Source: Roseibacillus sp.
Lineage (GTDB): Bacteria > Verrucomicrobiota > Verrucomicrobiia > Verrucomicrobiales > Akkermansiaceae
DNA: 64,000 nt
Direction of reading: 5' to 3'
NCBI GenBank assembly: GCA_965242925.1
Contig: CBDEUM010000014.1
Coordinates: forward strand, 288,001 to 352,000
Made by a program: the position numbers and the translations under genes. The stretch's first letter is position 1; every line of letters begins with the position of its first letter. Below the pieces are notes generated by a model. That model was not told where the DNA came from, did not search any database, and saw nothing but the letters and a program-made list of their open reading frames with translations. This document shows, in pieces, positions 2,020 through 39,049 of this stretch.

Positions 2020-2203
2020 GCAGCGGTTTGCCCGGGATGGATGTTCATGCCGAGCCCCTGAAAGGCATTTCCTTTCACAACCCATCCCCTCACCGCGGCC
2101 CCCGGCCCAGGATGGGAGGGGCAATCCTGATCGGCACGGTGACAATGGACAATCTCCGCACGAAGGAACGGGCCTGTAAATGCGTACCCGCCGTCTGCGG
2201 TAA

Positions 2204-3400
2204 TTAAATGACGCCCAGCTCCCGGCCGGTTCTGGCAAAGGCCTCCACCGCGAGATCGAGGTGCTCCCGGGTGTGGGCCGCCGAAACCTGCGTACGGATG
2301 CGCGCGGTATCCTGCGGAACCACGGGGTAAAAGAAGCCAACCGCGTAGACCCCGCGCTCAAGGAGTTTCTCCGCGAAGCGCTGCGACAGAGCGGCATCGC
2401 CCAGCATAACGGGCGTGATGGGGTGATCGGCGCCTGCTATCCGGAAACCCGTCTGGGCCATGGCTTCCCGGAAATAGGCGGTGTTGTCCTTTACGCGGTC
2501 GGCCAACTCGGTTGAGGACTCCAGCAACTCGAAAACCTTGAGCGACGCGGCCGCGATGGCTGGAGCCAGGCTGTTAGAGAACAGGTAGGGGCGAGAACGC
2601 TGGCGCAGCAGATCAATGATCTCCCTGCGTCCCGAGGTGTAGCCCCCCGAAGCACCCCCGAGCGCCTTGCCCAGAGTGGAGGTGGTGAGGTCGATCTTGC
2701 CGAAAAGACCGCAATGCTCGTGCGTGCCACGCCCCCTCGACCCCAGAAATCCGGTGGCGTGACAGTCATCGAAATGCACGAGCGCGTCATACCTGGCAGC
2801 CAGTTCGTGAATACCATCGAGCTGCGCGATCACCCCATCCATGGAAAATACCCCGTCGGAAGTGATCAGTTTCTGACGAGCTCCGGCAGCCTCCGCCTCC
2901 TGCAACCTGGCTTCAAGATCGGACAGGTCGTTGTTGTCATAGCGATAGCGCTGCGCCTTGCAGAGCCGGACGCCATCGATGATGGAGGCGTGATTGAGAC
3001 TGTCGGAAATAACGGCATCCTCGGCGGTGAGAAGCGTCTCAAAGAGCCCTCCATTGGCGTCAAAACAGGAGGGATAGAGGATGGTGTCTTCGGTGCCCAG
3101 AAAAGCAGTGATGGTGTCCTCCAGCTGGCGATGCACGCTCTGGCTGCCACAGATGAACCGCACCGACGCCGTCCCGAATCCCCAGCGCTCCAGGGCCGCA
3201 CGGGCTGCCTCCACCACCTCGGGATGGTCAGCCAGTCCCAGGTAATTGTTGGCGCACATATTGAGGACTTCACGCCCGTCCTGCAGCGTGATGAGGGCAC
3301 TCTGTGGGGAGCCTATGAAACGCTCCTGCTTGTAGAGACCCGCCTGCTTGATCTCCCCGAGAGTGCGGTGGAGTCGGGATTGGAGGGCGGTGGAAAACAC
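2204..3400 (-). CDS. kbl: glycine C-acetyltransferase (2-amino-3-ketobutyrate CoA ligase)
   Basis: [58 protein letters not shown]. Confidence 0.95.
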
Positions 3401-3543
3401 AGCTGGATTAGAACGCCTAATTCGACCGAATGAACGCGAATTCTTGCTGATTTATCCGGTTCTCGTCATTTGCACGACAGGACCCATGAACAGGGGCCCG
3501 CCCTGCCCTTCGTCGGCCCTCGGGCCCCGCAAGCCGACTCATT

Positions 3544-32032: not shown

Positions 32033-32170
32033 GGCCGGCAGTGTGCCCACCCTGTCCCCGGAATCAAGAAGCCCCTGCCACCCCTGCCGTGGCACCCCGG
32101 AATGATCCAATGGCTCCGGAACTCAAGAGCTCCTTGACTCAGAGCGTGCAGTGTCCTACCTCCGCTCCCC

Positions 32171-33290
32171 ATGCCAGAACCTTCATTCAGCGACGACCTC
32201 CAGGCGCTCGACACCACGGCCCTCAAGGGCCGCTTGTCGGAACTCCGGAGGTATCTTTGACGTCCCTGAACTGGAGAAGAACATCGCTACCATCGAAAAG
32301 AAGATGGAGTCCCCGGACTTCTGGAACGACCAGAACGCCGCCCAGTCGACGGTCAGGGAGGCCAGCCGGCTCAAGGGCAAACTCCACCCCTTCCTCAGGC
32401 TCGAGGAACGCCTCCAGAACGTGGAGGCCGGGATCGAACTGGCGCGCGAATTCAATGATGCCGACTCGGCCCAGGAGGCCTCCGACGAATTCAAGACCCT
32501 CACCCGCGACATCGATTCCTTTGAGCTGGTAACCCTCCTCGACAAGCCGACCGATCTCAACAATGCCTACCTGTCCATCCAGGCGGGGGCCGGCGGCACG
32601 GAGGCTTTCGACTGGGCCCAGATGCTTCAGCGCATGTACATGCGCTGGGCGGAGAGCAGGGGATTCAAGGTGTCCGTCACGGACGAGCAGGAGGGGGAAG
32701 GTGCGGGCATCTCCAGCGCCTCCCTCAAGATTGAGGGAGAGTATGCCTACGGCTACCTGAAGAACGAACGCGGGGTGCATCGCCTGGTGCGCATTTCTCC
32801 CTTCGATGCAGCCGGCAAGCGTCACACTTCATTCGTCGCAATCGACTGCACACCGGAGATCTCCAAGGACATCAATATCGAGATTCCCGAGGGCGACGTC
32901 GAAGTGCAAACCACCCGCTCCGGCGGAAAAGGCGGCCAGAATGTCAACAAGGTGGAAACGGCGGTCATCCTGAAACACAGTCCCTCCGGCATCCTCATCC
33001 GTTGCACGCAGGAGCGCTCCCAGCTGCGCAACCGCGAACTGGCCTGGGAACTTCTCAAGGCCAAGCTCTACCAGATTGAGGAGGACAAGCAGAAGGCAGA
33101 GGCGGACCGAACCTACGGCGAGAAGGGCGAAATCGGATTCGGCAGCCAGATCCGCTCCTACGTCTTCCAGCCCTATCAGATGGTCAAGGATCTCCGTACG
33201 GGCCATGAAACAGGGAATATCCAGGCCGTCATGGACGGGGACCTCGATGGCTTCATCGAGGCCAAGCTGCGCGGTCAGGAGAGATCCTGA
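32171..33290 (+). CDS. prfB: peptide chain release factor 2, with programmed +1 frameshift at 32255-32261
   Basis: ATG 32171 reads [29 protein letters not shown] then CTT TGA C; +1 frame continues DVPELEK...; SPF and GGQ motifs present. Confidence 0.97.
32247..32261 (+). promoter_or_regulatory. RF2 autoregulatory frameshift cassette
   Basis: Internal SD-like GGAGG, then TAT, then CTT TGA C. Confidence 0.95.
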
Positions 33291-33345: not shown

Positions 33346-34101
33346 ATGAAACGATTCTGGTGCTTCCTGCTGGCCCTCGTCTGCCCCGCCCTTGCAGACG
33401 TGGAATGGCGCAGCTTTGAAAACGCGGACAAGACCAGGTCCTTCCAGGGGCGTCTGGTCGGCTACGATCCCGCCCGGAAAAAGGTCACCGTGCAGAAGAA
33501 ATCAACCCTGCGCCCGGTCACCTTCAGCGTGGCCCTGCTTTCCGAGGAGCACCGCAAGTTCGTGGAAAAGCGCGCCGTAGAACTGGAAGCAGCTGGCGGC
33601 CTGCGCATGATGTTTTACCAGACGATCGAGAAAACCGGGAGCAACCGCAGCGGTGACACCCGCACCAGCAGTTACAACGGTGGCTATAAGATCGAAATCC
33701 GGAACTTCCTTCGTCGTGCCATCCAGGATGTCTCGGTCGACTATATCGTGATTTACCGCAAGGACTCGACCAAGGGTAATGGGACAAGGAGCGTTAAGAG
33801 AGGATCTAGGGACCTCACCGCCCTGGTGCCCAACTACGACGAGAACATCGTCATCGATGGCATCCCACTCACCAGCTACTACAAAGCTGGCTCGGTCTCG
33901 GTAACGGGGGCGGCGGGATCGACATGATGTCGCGGTGGTGGTGGCGCGGTCAGCGCCACGAGGTCACAGCGAAGCCGCGACTCCCTGGTCGGTTGCATTG
34001 CCCAGATTAAAGTGGGTGGCAAGGTGGTGAAGACCGAGGCGTCGAGCGCTGATGTGCTCCGCCAGTACAGCGGCGCCTTTGGATCATCTGACGCCCGGTA
34101 A
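33346..34101 (+). CDS. secreted hypothetical protein with SHD1-like N-terminus; probable selenoprotein (UGA 33925-33927 = Sec194, 251 aa)
   Basis: Signal peptide MKRFWCFLLALVCPALA; frame stays open 57 codons past UGA to TAA 34099-34101; SECIS-like hairpin 13 nt after the UGA. If UGA is a true stop the CDS is 33346-33927. Confidence 0.7.
33925..33960 (+). promoter_or_regulatory. candidate bacterial SECIS element
   Basis: Perfect 7-bp stem GTGGCGC (33941-47) / GCGCCAC (33953-59) with loop GGTCA starting 21 nt after the UGA. Confidence 0.65.
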
Positions 34102-34181: not shown

Positions 34182-35561
34182 CTAGCGAAAGGAAACGTCC
34201 TGGCCGACGGCAACCAGCTTGCCCCAGAGTTGCTGGGGAGATTCGCCCGGAGCGGTCATGACGAAATGGGGGGCATATTCCCGTCCCAACCCCAATTCCT
34301 CGACGAAATCGCGAAAAAGGTCCCGGAGCGCATCGCGCACAACAGGATCGGAGTTGGCCGGCAGAAGAAAGAGCACAGATCGGCGACCTTCCTCGTGGGA
34401 GTTGCTGAGAAGCGTCCTGTGAGGGAGTAGCTCCAAGAGGTCGCGGAATGACTCGGCGGAATCCACTCCGTCGTCAAAGTCGAAGGGAACGCGCACCAGG
34501 GTGGAGGGAGCCGCGTACTTGGTGTGGGTTGTCACCGCCGCTTCCATGGCAGCATAGAATTCATACTGGTCGATGGAGCGGTGGCGGGCCTCGTCATGAA
34601 GCGGCGGGGCTGGGGACCCGATCCTTCGATCGCAGACTGACTTCATCATCTCAAAGGACCCCGGCTGGAGGTTGTTGAAAGGCACATCCTGCACGATCAG
34701 GACGTGGGTTGTTGCCCTGTCGGCACCGTTGGTGATGGGATACGCTGCAAGATACCCGGACCTGCGTGAAGGGGGATTTTGCAGAAGGGTCTTCTGGACC
34801 AGAAAGCAGTTCCGGGCCAGGGACTCCGCCACGATCTGGTGATCATCCCGCAGCAGGTGCTCCGGGAAGTGCGCGGAGTCCCCCAGGGAGGCAACCCGCA
34901 CAAGAGCTGCAGCCCGGGACTCCAGAGGCACCTCGTAAAGTGCCGCACTGCCTGCGTGAGTGATCCGGGCCAGAGCCGCGAGAAGATCTGACGGGACGAA
35001 ATCGCTACAGGTTTCCACCGCCTCTCCCAGGTCCTCCTCCAGTTGTTCCTCCAGAGAATCCGCCTCGGCGCCATGGAATTCGAGCCTTTGCTGGAGATCC
35101 TGCCGGGAAAGCACGAGCAACTCCTTCTCGGCGTGCACCCGGCGGTTCTCTCTCCTGAGCTCTTCACCCTCTTTTTCCAACTGCAATCCACACCGCTGCA
35201 GGCCCTCCGAAACCTGGCCCAGGAGAACCCCGAGGAGAGGGAAGGAGATCAGAGTGTAGCGATGCTCCGTGAGAGTGATCCCCTGGCCTGCCACATACCT
35301 TCCCACCACCAGGAGCAGAACAGTGAGTAGCCCGGCGCTGAGCCCGGCGCTGAATCCGTAACGAACACCGAGGAGCACAGGGATGAGAAGAAAGGGAGTC
35401 GGATTGACGCCAAACCAACCGGCATCTCCGGGAACGATCACGTAGTTCACCAAGGCCAGCAGCGCGAAGAACGCAACGAAGCGGAGAAGAAAGAACCGAA
35501 CAGGATATGGCCCGGGACAAGACACGGAGCCATGGACAAAGGGCAGGGTCTGGGCAGACAT
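34182..35561 (-). CDS. PelD-like membrane protein (4 TM + GAF-like + degenerate GGDEF-like)
   Basis: PGDAGWFGVNPTPFLLIPVLLGVRYGFSAGL resembles the PelD N-terminus; coiled coil LSRQDLQQRL; GAF-like middle region. Confidence 0.6.
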   Translation of the reverse strand: MSAQTLPFVHGSVSCPGPYPVRFFLLRFVAFFALLALVNYVIVPGDAGWFGVNPTPFLLIPVLLGVRYGFSAGLSAGLLTVLLLVVGRYVAGQGITLTEHRYTLISFPLLGVLLGQVSEGLQRCGLQLEKEGEELRRENRRVHAEKELLVLSRQDLQQRLEFHGAEADSLEEQLEEDLGEAVETCSDFVPSDLLAALARITHAGSAALYEVPLESRAAALVRVASLGDSAHFPEHLLRDDHQIVAESLARNCFLVQKTLLQNPPSRRSGYLAAYPITNGADRATTHVLIVQDVPFNNLQPGSFEMMKSVCDRRIGSPAPPLHDEARHRSIDQYEFYAAMEAAVTTHTKYAAPSTLVRVPFDFDDGVDSAESFRDLLELLPHRTLLSNSHEEGRRSVLFLLPANSDPVVRDALRDLFRDFVEELGLGREYAPHFVMTAPGESPQQLWGKLVAVGQDVSFR

Positions 35562-35967
35562 GGGGGAGGCAGAGGGCAAGGGTGTGGCAGCGCAATGCTT
35601 GCAGTGGCACTGCGGACAAGGTCCTTCAGATAACCGGACTACCTCAGTGTCGCCAAAAGGAAATTTAGAAATGAATTTAAGCGATGATGATATTCATGGT
35701 AATTCTTCCTGTCTCAGTTAAACGAAATTCTCCTGATATCTAATCATCTCAAATTAAATACGGGATCCCTAGTAGGATCCCTTTATCAGCGAAAACAGGG
35801 AGAATGGGGCCCAGTTGTTGATCTCATCCATCCTGCGGATCAAAACTTCAGGACAGCTCTTGGCTTCTCCTGAAAGAACGGGAAAACCCCTTAGTCGTGT
35901 AGCTGCGAAAATAAGGAAAACTTGGATCCGGGCCTTGGCCTGGAATTTCAGTTCTCTTTATCTAACA

Positions 35968-38955
35968 TCACTGCCGCGAACCCGGAACCACTTCCAGGAT
36001 GACCTTCTTCCCTTTGCGCAGCACGGTGATTTTCACTTTCTCTCCCACCTTGAGGGACTCCAGCAGGTAGGTGTAGTCGTAGATATTCTTCACTTCCTTG
36101 CCCGACACGTTGACCACCACGTCACCGGCTTCGATGCCGGCCTTGTCGGCCGGACCGCCCTTGGTGGCACCCGAGAGTTTGACCCCCACAATATCACCCT
36201 GGGAATAGTCGGGAACGGTTCCCAGATAGGCCCGCAAGTTGGCCCGTCGCCCCTGCCCTTCAGGGCGTTCCACCTTGACGTAATCGGGCTCCTCACCAGC
36301 GGCGGCCAGACCGCGGGCCACCAGGGCCATGAAACGCGTGACGCGCTCGGTCCCGGGGTAATTGATCTTGTCAGCAGTATCTCTGGGCGTGTGGTAATCA
36401 TCGTGAGCACCAGTGAAGGCGTTCAGAATCGGCACTTCGCGCAGGTAGAAGGATGTCGCATCCGTGGGCAGATAGGCATCGCTCTGCGTCTTGATGGACA
36501 ATCCGACAGGGACGTTGCGCTGTTCGATGATCCCAGGCCAGATTGAACTGGATCCCGTCCCCTGGAGGACGAGGGATTTGTCGAGACGACCCACCATGTC
36601 CATATTGAGATTAGCCGCAAAAATCCCATTGAGCTTGGCGTTTTCATCGCCCTTCAACTTCCGGGCAACCTCCTTGACGAAATGGGAAGAACCGATCAAT
36701 CCGATTTCCTCCCCGGACCAGGCCGCAAAGAGGACATCTCGCTTGAGCTTGAGTTTCCCGGCCTTCTGCTGAGAAGAGAGATACTGGGCGATCTCCAGCA
36801 AACCCGCCACCCCCGAGGCGTTATCATCCGCACCAAAATGAATTTCCTGCGCCTCTTTTCCGGTGGCTCGCGAGCCACCGCCATGGGTCCCCAGATGATC
36901 GACATGTGCCCCGAGAATAAGCGCCGGCCGCCTCTGGGCTTCCGGGTCCGCGGCGACCAGCCGTCCCACCACATTACGGCCGGTTCGCTTCTGTTGGACA
37001 ATGTCAATCCGGGCCCCGAGAGCGGCCTTGGGAATCTTCAGGCCCATCATCATCTCTCCCTTGTCGAGAATGGTCTGGATCTCCTTGAGATTCTTGCCGG
37101 TTGCCGCAACCAATTTCTCGCCGATCTCCTTGCGCACCGAGAGTGCCGCGATACCGGAGTCCGCCATTGATGCATCATAGCTCAGTCTCACCAACTCCTC
37201 CCGCACCTTCGAATTCGGGCCGGCCACGAAGATGATTCCCCGGGCGCCCTTCTGGCGGGCCGTCATAGCCTTGTAGCGCATACTTGAGTAACGGGCAAAC
37301 TGGCGGCGGCGCTCTGCGCTCACGTTTTCAGGTATGAAGCGGAGAGCCAGCACCCACTTGTCCTTTACCGCCAGATGGTAATAGCTGGAGTACATCTTCG
37401 TCTTGGAGCCATCGGCATCCACCTGCCCTTCTGGGATCTCAATCCCGTATCCGGCGAAAACGATTTCCTCGGCCTTGATCTCTCCCAGCTGGGAAAAGGA
37501 AAGCGGACGCCAGTCCTCGTCTACCTTGAGGTCCAGTTCTTCATCCCCCGTCTTCAGGACGAGCGTGTTCCCCTTGCCGAGATCCATCCCCGCCGTGAAC
37601 TCGAAGGGGTGAAAGTAGTTGTCGCCCAGAAAGGGTTTCAACCCGAACTCTTCGAAGGCTCGTGCCACGTAGGCGGTCGCCTTGCGCTCCCCCGGCGTGC
37701 CCGTCATCCGGCCCTCCAGTTCAGGGCCCGCCAGGTACTCGATATGGTGACGAAGGTCCCCCTGGTCAACCTTGGAAGTCGTGGCTGCCAACCCCGCAAG
37801 AGCCTTGGTGGAAAGTTCCACCTTGGGGTCCTCCTTGCCTTGAGGGGGCGTTCCCCGGACAGGCGCGGCGGCAAGAAGTTCGAGGGCAGCGCTGTGATTC
37901 CAGTCCGCCAGAAAAATCTGTGAACCCTTCTTGCCCGTCCGTTTGCTGGTCCAGGACAGGCGCTTCCCATCAGGGGAAAATGCAGGCAACCCGTCGAATC
38001 CGTCCGTCCAGGTCACCCGCACCGGTTCCCTGGCCCCAGCCGCGTCAACCAGGTAGAGCTCAAAGTTGGCGAAACCGTTCAGATTCGTTGCGAAGATAAG
38101 ATACTCACCACTCGAGTGGAAGTAGGGCGCCCACGACATCGCGTCCAGGGCAGTGAGCTGTTTCTCGTTACTCCCGTCGACATTCATGGTCCAGATCTCG
38201 GCCTGATCCCCTTCCCGGTTGAAACGCCGCCAACAGATCTTCGATCCATCCGCATTGAAGAACGCCCCGCCATCGTAACCGGGCTCCGACGTCAGCTGTT
38301 TCACATTGGAGCCATCCGCATCCATGATGAAGAGGTCCATCAGGAAGGAAGGATTGAGCTTGAACCACTCCCGGTCCTTTGCGCTGAGCCTGTCGGCATC
38401 GGAGTAGCCCAGACGGTTGGATCCAAAGACCACCTTACGCCCATCCGGTGAGTAGGCCCCCTCCGCATCGTAGCCTGGCGTTCTGGTCAGGTTACGGGAT
38501 TTCTTCGTCTCCAGATCATACTCGTAGATGTCGAAGAAGGCATCGTAGTCCCAGGAATAACGCTTCTCCTTGCCCTCCGCCCGACGCTTCAACGCTTCCT
38601 CCTGTTTTTTCCTCGCATCGGGATCGCTGTGAGTGGAGGCGAACATGACCTTCTTCCCCCCGGGGTGAATCCAGGCACACGTCGTCTTGCCATGGCCGGG
38701 AGAGATGCGCTCGGTATCGCCGGTCTCCAGATCAATCAGGTAGATCTGGAAAAACGGATTATCCTTCTCCCGTTCACTCTGGAAAATCATCTTGCTCCCA
38801 TCCGCACTGAAATAGCCCTCCCCGGCCCGCTTGCCCGCGAAGGTGAGCTGCCGGGTGGAGGAGAGAAGGCGCGCTTCATTTTCTGCCGCCTCGTCCGCAA
38901 GGGCAGCCACAGGCACACTCAAGGCGAGGGAAATCAGGAGATAAACAGTTCTCAT
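35968..38955 (-). CDS. secreted M28-family metallopeptidase with TolB-like (PD40) propeller, PA and PDZ domains
   Basis: AGEGYFSADG and GYDAEGAYSPDG repeats; ILGAHVDHLG, GADDNASG, WSGEEIGLIGS, NMDMVGR, HDDYHTP; C-terminal PDZ YLGTVPD. Confidence 0.92.
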   Translation of the reverse strand: MRTVYLLISLALSVPVAALADEAAENEARLLSSTRQLTFAGKRAGEGYFSADGSKMIFQSEREKDNPFFQIYLIDLETGDTERISPGHGKTTCAWIHPGGKKVMFASTHSDPDARKKQEEALKRRAEGKEKRYSWDYDAFFDIYEYDLETKKSRNLTRTPGYDAEGAYSPDGRKVVFGSNRLGYSDADRLSAKDREWFKLNPSFLMDLFIMDADGSNVKQLTSEPGYDGGAFFNADGSKICWRRFNREGDQAEIWTMNVDGSNEKQLTALDAMSWAPYFHSSGEYLIFATNLNGFANFELYLVDAAGAREPVRVTWTDGFDGLPAFSPDGKRLSWTSKRTGKKGSQIFLADWNHSAALELLAAAPVRGTPPQGKEDPKVELSTKALAGLAATTSKVDQGDLRHHIEYLAGPELEGRMTGTPGERKATAYVARAFEEFGLKPFLGDNYFHPFEFTAGMDLGKGNTLVLKTGDEELDLKVDEDWRPLSFSQLGEIKAEEIVFAGYGIEIPEGQVDADGSKTKMYSSYYHLAVKDKWVLALRFIPENVSAERRRQFARYSSMRYKAMTARQKGARGIIFVAGPNSKVREELVRLSYDASMADSGIAALSVRKEIGEKLVAATGKNLKEIQTILDKGEMMMGLKIPKAALGARIDIVQQKRTGRNVVGRLVAADPEAQRRPALILGAHVDHLGTHGGGSRATGKEAQEIHFGADDNASGVAGLLEIAQYLSSQQKAGKLKLKRDVLFAAWSGEEIGLIGSSHFVKEVARKLKGDENAKLNGIFAANLNMDMVGRLDKSLVLQGTGSSSIWPGIIEQRNVPVGLSIKTQSDAYLPTDATSFYLREVPILNAFTGAHDDYHTPRDTADKINYPGTERVTRFMALVARGLAAAGEEPDYVKVERPEGQGRRANLRAYLGTVPDYSQGDIVGVKLSGATKGGPADKAGIEAGDVVVNVSGKEVKNIYDYTYLLESLKVGEKVKITVLRKGKKVILEVVPGSRQ

Positions 38956-39049
38956 GTGTGAAATCCTAATAGAATCAGGCCTCCTATACGTCAATCGTAT
39001 GCTCGGAATTGCTTTTCGTTTCAAAATTCCTCACTGAGAGGCGCTCACC

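Follow-up and report, generated by a model that had tools for sequence, protein, structure and literature searches.

Results

A gene with an in-frame TGA

Positions 33346 to 34101 of the window, as the whole 64,000-nt stretch of a Roseibacillus sp. assembly analysed here is called, very probably hold a single gene encoding a 251-residue exported selenoprotein in which an in-frame TGA is read as selenocysteine (Sec, U); this confidence extends to the gene model and leaves its function aside. Read without recoding, the open reading frame (ORF; 33346..33927) is closed after 193 amino acids (aa) by TGA 33925-33927. Read through, the frame continues for 57 codons past the TGA and reaches TAA 34099-34101, giving 251 residues. 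The tail past the TGA is devoid of Met, and its earliest alternative start, a GTG (...IK-V-GG), lies beyond the best-conserved tail block. An initial annotation, made from the sequence alone, had described the ORF, the TGA, the extended frame and the lack of an in-frame ATG in the tail, and all were found where it had placed them; the tail sequence that it quoted was recovered exactly on reading through the TGA. The features of the gene are as follows.

33346..34101, plus strand: full predicted selenoprotein coding sequence, 251 aa and TAA, with TGA 33925-33927 as Sec; frame kept across the TGA in 31 of 31 spanning loci
33346..33396, plus strand: predicted signal peptidase I (SPase-I) signal peptide, M1-A17; K2 R3, hydrophobic core, A15-L16-A17 and then D18
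33400..33582, plus strand: predicted N-terminal SHD1-like small beta-barrel, aa 19-79, from a VIA-align match to Sla1 SHD1 (2hbp)
33601..34041, plus strand: predicted immunoglobulin (Ig)-like beta-sandwich, aa 86-232, from the AlphaFold2 model and VIA-align sandwich matches
33910..33948, plus strand: Gly/Ser/Ala-rich loop, aa 189-201, bearing U194-C195; modelled at lower confidence, and the site of the Cys pairs of homologs
33925..33927, plus strand: predicted Sec codon UGA, residue 194; conserved TGA
33928..33930, plus strand: Cys195, vicinal to Sec; Ser instead in loci L034, L049 and L132
33941..33959, plus strand: predicted selenocysteine insertion sequence (SECIS) hairpin GUGGCGC/GCGCCAC, 7-bp stem, apical loop GGUCA, from folding and comparison
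33994..33996, plus strand: Cys217 in the motif RSRDxLxGC; invariant in a 22-sequence alignment (A2) and missing in several other subfamilies
34099..34101, plus strand: true stop codon TAA, the end of the read-through frame

The signal peptide was read off the sequence rather than called by a predictor, and residues 1-20 have a low predicted local distance difference test score (pLDDT) in the structural model described below.

Conservation of the TGA as a sense codon

At 33925-33927 the UGA is conserved and acts as a sense codon, and translation continues in frame into a tail that belongs to the fold. Used as a database query, the read-through protein returned 79 homologs, with source names that include Roseibacillus sp. 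and metagenome-assembled genomes (MAGs) of Verrucomicrobiales. No more than 77% of the query is covered by 77 of the 79, none of which continues past the TGA. The only full-length homologs, P0079 and P0080 (∼37% identity), are the most distant ones; they align over the entire tail and have Cys in the loop. Comparison at the DNA level drew on 11 species-representative genomes and 24 metagenome contigs. GST-TGA is found at the Sec codon in all 31 loci of the Roseibacillus-type clade that span the site (the window and 30 others, at 71-99% protein identity), two of which, L034 and L049, have U-S in place of U-C. Two further loci fall short of the TGA, L065 diverging past residue 176 and L067 ending at residue 94.

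Outside the clade, uninterrupted homologs with 35-44% identity carry Cys in the loop: CSTC in L041 (an Akkermansiaceae bin), CSSC in L042 (Luteolibacter) and CRGGSC in L043 (Haloferula). The loop of uninterrupted relatives reads CSTC, CSSC, CRGGSC, CxxxxC, CPRCPRC or CC, and CxxC, Cx4C or CC was seen there in L041-L043, P0079-P0083, P0085, P0087, P0099, P0105, P0116, P0148 and P0183. Two outcomes that the initial annotation had allowed for, homologs ending at the TGA and homologs with Trp or Gly in its place, are thus not what the comparison gives: the TGA and the protein frame downstream of it are conserved, and the distant homologs have a loop Cys. Past the TGA, dN/dS is 0.02-0.07 over 38 gap-free codons (computable for 6 of 10 locus pairs, dS being saturated in the other 4), and the variable sites in these codons number 13 at first, 6 at second and 38 at third positions. 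In 65 of 66 TGA-containing frames of the wider family, the tblastn and profile matches carry on across the TGA and reach at least profile position 226. At the transcript level, contigs from three of four RNA libraries extend across the TGA and show no difference there, the fourth run (X18) having no bridging contig; since DNA carry-over is possible, these contigs are weak evidence of transcription.

If the TGA were instead a genuine stop, the product would have 193 aa and the conservation downstream would belong to a separate small ORF or to a non-coding element. Gene callers and GenBank records agree with such a stop insofar as the window protein and its relatives are listed as hypothetical proteins of 191-194 aa, cut at the Sec codon, and small ORFs covering only the tail have been called (P0144, 47 aa; P0212, 35 aa). 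The stretch from the TGA to the conserved RSRDSLVGC block, however, is free of start codons, the selection on the tail acts in the same frame, the Cys homologs are single uninterrupted proteins, three strands of the predicted sandwich come from the tail, and at least six divergent subfamilies have a TGA in this loop. A true stop is accordingly very improbable.

Even less probable is a pseudogene, or a TGA that arose as a sequencing or assembly error in a MAG. The assembly is of the metagenome type (42 contigs, 89.87% complete, 3.18% contamination), which leaves room for such an error, but the same TGA stands in the 31 independent clade loci and in the contigs of the three RNA libraries, and purifying selection persists past it. 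In addition, among the matches in the genus of the window genome (g1) that cover the whole family profile, 16 of 17 have exactly one TGA inside and the other (G795) has the same TGA and a TAA. The comparative data already refute a pseudogene or sequencing error.

A SECIS-type hairpin follows the UGA

The perfect 7-bp hairpin reported in the initial annotation was confirmed: GTGGCGC (33941-33947) pairs with GCGCCAC (33953-33959) across the loop GGTCA (33948-33952), at -13.4 kcal/mol. Its loop starts at the 21st base past the UGA, which leaves 20 intervening bases; in most relatives the spacing is 17 nt. For bacterial SECIS elements, PMC13188914 gives a loop of 3-9 nt, an upper stem of 4-16 bp, G in at least one of the first two loop positions, a spacing of 16-37 nt from the UGA and a minimum free energy of -7.5 kcal/mol or lower. 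With GG opening a 5-nt loop on a 7-bp stem, 20 nt of spacing and the energy given above, the window hairpin lies within all of these limits. When all TGA triplets in the window were considered, on both strands and in any frame, 15 of 1894 (about 1 in 125) were followed by a comparable hairpin, defined by a perfect stem of at least 7 bp, a loop of 3-9 nt that has G among its first two bases, and a spacing of 16-37 nt. The hairpin alone is therefore unusual rather than decisive, and it is conservation that carries the weight.

The 21 distinct 66-nt segments from the clade have 147 stem cells, of which 146 are paired; the stem changes comprise one compensatory G-C to A-U replacement (L055), with an A.C intermediate in L053, and seven wobble changes. 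Degenerate third positions hold one or two letters within the hairpin, all of them pair-preserving transitions; flanking sites of the same kind hold three or four. Across subfamilies, a stem of at least 4 bp under an [AG]GU[CU] apex was found 17-24 nt past the UGA in 61 of 64 distinct contexts. These comprise 25 distinct hairpins, every stem position being represented by at least three pair types; examples are UCCCUAC-GGUCU-GUGGGGA, UGCCUGGC-GGUC-GCCGGGUA and ACCUGCC-GGUC-GGCGGGU. The stem of L141 differs from that of the window by two pairs, both fully compensatory. No SECIS-type hairpin was found in any of the three Cys forms, where the best stems have 2-4 bp. As judged by these sequence comparisons, the predicted hairpin structure is conserved independently of the encoded peptide.

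Selenocysteine genes and the meaning of UGA in the genome

The organism has selenocysteine-decoding genes. Both selD and selB score above the cut-off, and a tRNA-Sec with anticodon UCA was found by ARAGORN. The selD gene (locus L001, G000:C14:572353-576276) itself contains an in-frame Sec-TGA, at locus position 1531 and at the canonical site SSCAG-U-ASK, and about 33 nt past this codon is a hairpin, GCGCAG-GUC-CUGCGC, with the same GGUC apex as that of the window.

Directly upstream of the selenoprotein gene lies prfB (window 32171-33290, plus strand), which encodes release factor 2 (RF2; PCRF and RF-1 domains) and ends in TGA. It has a classical programmed +1 frameshift site, CTT TGA C, at 32255-32261 (...CGG AGG TAT CTT TGA C...), with a Shine-Dalgarno-like AGG upstream; the 28 codons that start at ATG 32171 and encode its N terminus lie in a different frame from the main ORF at 32151..33290. 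The frameshift site and the TGA end together show that UGA is otherwise read as stop by RF2 in this organism. These observations bear on whether UGA could be read here without selenium, either through genome-wide reassignment to Trp or Gly or through near-cognate suppression with Trp, Cys or Arg. Reassignment of UGA to Trp is reported for some Verrucomicrobiota in the abstract of PMC13462651. Such decoding is nevertheless highly unlikely for the window gene, given the adjoining RF2 gene with its UGA-dependent frameshift, two orthologs (L038 and L039) that terminate at a TGA stop, aligned homologs with Cys rather than Trp or Gly, the hairpin that accompanies the TGA and is missing from Cys forms, and the selD, selB and tRNA-Sec genes.

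A family with varied selenocysteine motifs

A profile search of 1.84 billion cluster representatives gave 614 matches at E<=1e-3. Among the best 148 of these 614, 52 are 170-205 aa long, and 38 of the 52 end inside the loop, in a Gly run followed by at most three residues. When 401 Akkermansiaceae genomes were searched with the profile (E<=1e-12), 88 gave matches, distributed over genera as follows.

g1 (own genus): 19 of 19 genomes matched
g190: 23 of 42
g187: 16 of 31
g189: 10 of 25
g4: 7 of 102
g3: 5 of 35
g188: 3 of 9
g324: 2 of 2
g327: 2 of 2
g2: 0 of 102

From Akkermansiaceae, 70 loci were fetched and yielded 71 profile-matching frames, 66 of them, from genera other than that of the window, with a TGA in the loop; because the loci had been picked for a TGA or a short open frame, 66 of 71 is not a prevalence figure. 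The motif is UC in 50 of the 66 TGA frames, UGGxPC (Ux4C) in eight, UGGxPV in four, UU in two, and UGGAPA and US in one each. The loop TGA, confirmed on DNA, occupies the same place in at least six divergent subfamilies, with wholly different contexts: GST-U-C-RGGGAVSAT, KSGGG-U-GGAPCKPGGRR, GGGGG-U-C-FTEDPYGLWG, GGG-U-C-xYDYPDGRQ and GGG-U-C-GPNVPGGRR among them. The two UU members, L173 (G713:C51; GGG-UU-GSGTPAGRR) and L177 (G799:C107; AGG-UU-GAPGTSGGRR), would be vicinal diselenide proteins, and in both a hairpin with a GGUC apex lies downstream of the TGA pair. The vicinal Sec-Cys motif to which the initial annotation drew attention is common, in its UC form, yet not obligatory, as the US, Ux4C and UU forms and those with U and no nearby Cys make plain.

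One frame, L189 (G847:C40), contains the loop TGA together with a second one about 27 codons further on, and its profile match breaks off at position 190; it is possibly a frameshifted or decaying copy. Locus L138 (G698:C99) has two tandem family members without Sec, one with CSTC in the loop and the other with no loop Cys. A class-level sample (400 genomes and the window genome, G000) gave one hidden Sec case, L100 (G690), with its TGA just beyond the profile match, and a TGA within an N-terminal-domain match (G630:C6). In the corresponding phylum-level sample (400 genomes and G000), no further member with a loop TGA was found.

Predicted structure

A 99-sequence alignment gave an AlphaFold2 model with a mean pLDDT of 90.4 and a predicted template modelling score (pTM) of 0.80. 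In this model, the residues past the UGA form sandwich strands 202-211, 213-223 and 226-232, so that a 193-aa product would be without them; the U-C loop (189-201) is of lower confidence (pLDDT 65-77). By VIA-align, residues 19-79 match Sla1 SHD1 (2hbp) with Z 8.3 and a root mean square deviation (rmsd) of 1.9 over 58 aligned residues. The best match of the sandwich (residues 85-235) is CsgC (2y2y; Z 9.2, rmsd 3.4, 95 of 95 residues aligned), but unrelated sandwiches such as GH2 and transglutaminase domains match at Z 7-8.6, and because they score so close to CsgC only the general sandwich fold is established. Foldseek against the PDB gave weak multi-domain matches only (TMq at most 0.28). The mature protein is accordingly modelled as an SHD1-like beta-barrel followed by two short helices and then by an Ig-like sandwich with a flexible Gly-rich loop that would carry U194-C195 at its tip. 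The layout first proposed for the protein, a signal peptide, an SHD1-like domain and a beta domain, agrees with the model and the fold search.

Although residues 19-79 superpose on 2hbp, the Pfam model for SHD1 (PF03983) has no match at E<=1, so that 'SHD1-like' refers to the fold only. The N-terminal module was also seen in four other proteins of the same genome (G000:C22:23167-23391, C29:227456-227686, C14:613822-614055 and C38:5338-5550), and in long tandem arrays in P0136 (4278 aa, 15 stretches) and P0169 (995 aa, 11 stretches).

Discussion

Points against the selenoprotein gene and its Sec-Cys couple

Several results weigh against the interpretation set out above. Neither PF03841 nor TIGR00474 found selA in the window genome, the assembly of which is 89.87% complete; of the selABCD set by which the initial annotation would judge the gene, selD, selB and tRNA-Sec are thus present and selA was not found here, though it was found in six of six related genomes tested (all five that hold orthologs, and G690). 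Covariation within the clade is not significant, 114 of 500 shuffles of the 21 segments doing as well. The clade is too uniform for this test, and the structural argument therefore rests on the comparison across subfamilies, where the covarying hairpin named as a check in the initial annotation is indeed seen, the structure being kept with different stem letters. In alignments with Cys homologs the Sec/Cys register is uncertain by 1-3 residues because loop length varies. Some family members have no loop Cys (P0084, P0086, P0088, P0091 and L142) and some Sec forms have no neighbouring Cys (US, UGGxPV), so that a Sec-Cys couple is not a universal mechanism of the family. Finally, no conserved gene neighbourhood pointing to a function was found among the window, L041, L042, L043 and L100.

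Relation to known selenoproteins

We regard the gene as representing a selenoprotein family that is new, within a type of system that is already known. Pfam and NCBIfam scans of the window protein gave no match at E<=1, PF03983 included, and none over the cut-off for 13 other Sec forms or three Cys forms; sub-threshold weak matches to the RimP SH3 domain appeared in 3 of 16 relatives. Atlas clusters resembling the Cys homolog P0081 belong to Verrucomicrobiota and are labelled 'hypothetical protein'; in one of them, 15% of the members carry PF03983. Table 1 of PMC13188914 (2026) catalogues 119 selenoprotein families of prokaryotes, almost every one under an InterPro-type identifier, and the null scans mean that those of its families that are based on Pfam, NCBIfam or TIGRFAM models cannot include the window protein. 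The family did not turn up in this catalogue, families defined by cd or PTHR identifiers only lying outside the scan. The remark in the initial annotation that the protein resembled no recognised selenoprotein family holds to this extent. None of six peptide words occurs in the supplements of the GOS selenoproteome (PMC2398784; four files, 624,815 characters), and six words are likewise without a match in the BSepDB supplement (PMC13326102), in text that reaches Table S1, the family list of Table S2 lying beyond it. Full-text literature searches found no paper describing the family.

Bacterial genes with an intragenic SECIS, such as E. coli fdhF (the Zhang and Gladyshev model, as presented in PMC13188914), share with the window gene the in-frame UGA and a GC-rich stem within 16-37 nt. 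A small apical loop starting with G, Cys homologs and the genomic selB, selD and tRNA-Sec are likewise common to both. The apex of the fdhF SECIS is GGUC, the same four letters as in the window hairpin. Most known selenoproteins are cytoplasmic thioredoxin-fold oxidoreductases; the window family, by comparison with known bacterial selenoproteins, matches no Pfam or NCBIfam model and has a predicted fold that is not thioredoxin-like. Its unusual traits are the export signal, the non-thioredoxin fold and the UC or UU loop.

Thioredoxin reductase has vicinal Cys and Sec residues in its GCUG tail. Like it, and like the CopZ-like GxUC/CU, KCU-star, MbdU and SaoC proteins in PMC13188914, the window protein has adjacent chalcogen residues on a flexible stretch flanked by Gly; such an arrangement implies either a selenenylsulfide ring of eight members or a pair that chelates. 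The order in the window protein is U-C rather than C-U. Moreover, the window motif is placed in an internal loop of a predicted exported beta-sandwich, whereas theirs is in a C-terminal tail or a ferredoxin-like fold, and the window family, unlike them, also holds UU, Ux4C, US and lone U variants. CsgC is likewise an exported beta-sandwich with a Cys pair, and the N-terminal domain of DsbD is an Ig-fold periplasmic domain with a Cys pair. CsgC shows no sequence similarity, and the Cys pair of the window family sits in a long Gly-rich loop; this likeness may serve as a working analogy only.

Possible function

By the established bacterial mechanism, SelB-GTP-Sec-tRNASec would bind the GGUC-apex hairpin as the ribosome arrives at the UGA, and the delivered Sec would be inserted at residue 194. 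Removal of the signal peptide by SPase-I would then leave a mature protein that carries U194-C195 on a mobile loop, and the Sec-Cys pair may alternate between the selenol/thiol and selenenylsulfide states. There is about an even chance that the loop acts as a mobile redox arm, periplasmic or extracellular, that exchanges thiols and disulfides or reduces peroxides. A pattern of Sec/Cys exchange marks reactive, not structural, cysteines, and Sec repeatedly replaces the loop Cys across subfamilies, which favours the redox arm.

With the same gene model, the Sec loop might instead be the tip by which an exported scaffold binds soft metals or metalloids (e.g. Hg, Cu, Cd, As or selenium), a possibility that we rate as rather unlikely. 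The loop chemistry differs among members (CxxC, Cx4C, CC, UC, UU, Ux4C and lone U), as it typically does at chelating sites; members without a loop Cys suggest that the scaffold itself has a part in binding, and the occurrence of the N-terminal module in long tandem arrays (15 stretches in P0136, 11 in P0169) points the same way. Furthermore, CU and UC motifs in the catalogue of PMC13188914, as far as its text is available, are mostly metal-related (CopZ-like GxUC and CU, MbdU, HgcA, SaoL and SaoC). On the other hand, none of the five gene contexts examined contains metal-related neighbours, no conserved His, Met or Asp ligands were found near the loop, and the data do not tell binding from redox.

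On balance, we lean slightly towards regarding the gene as the founding example of a large, unrecognised Verrucomicrobiota family of exported Ig-fold selenoproteins. Behind this view stand the 614 cluster representatives, the roughly one-third of the best-scoring ones that end inside the Gly-rich loop as a TGA there would cause, the six or more Sec subfamilies confirmed on DNA and the UU forms. Such a family would let aerobic aquatic bacteria expose reactive selenium beyond the cytoplasm, on a loop that is flexible, and this points to an extracytoplasmic selenium chemistry (redox catalysis, or the capture of metals, metalloids or selenium) for which no counterpart has been described. It may be a main reason why these lineages retain Sec machinery. 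The truncated gene calls mean that dozens of Akkermansiaceae genomes carry a mis-annotated gene, and the selenoproteome of the Akkermansiaceae, which include relatives of gut Akkermansia, is underestimated. The natural UC, UU, Ux4C, US and Cys-only variants offer a comparative series on the role of selenium outside the cytoplasm, and the tight GGUC-apex SECIS, with its spacing of 17-24 nt, could aid in finding more selenoprotein genes in Verrucomicrobiota.

Neighbouring genes

The neighbours of the family members in the window, L041, L042, L043 and L100 encode RF2, a transposase, an AraC regulator, an Mfd-like protein and cytochrome c proteins, along with ORFs without matches. Directly upstream of the UC-type member in L100 (G690), on the same strand, is a gene for a 459-aa cytochrome c-domain protein (2150-3529, minus strand), an arrangement not seen at the other loci examined. 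In the window, 35968-39024 (minus strand) encodes a 1018-aa exported protein with PD40 beta-propeller repeats, a peptidase M28 domain and a C-terminal PDZ domain. Between this gene and the selenoprotein gene, window 34182-35579 (minus strand) is a 465-aa ORF with hydrophobic N-terminal segments and no Pfam match; L036 and L038 have an ORF of similar size (454-457 aa) that is placed and oriented alike.

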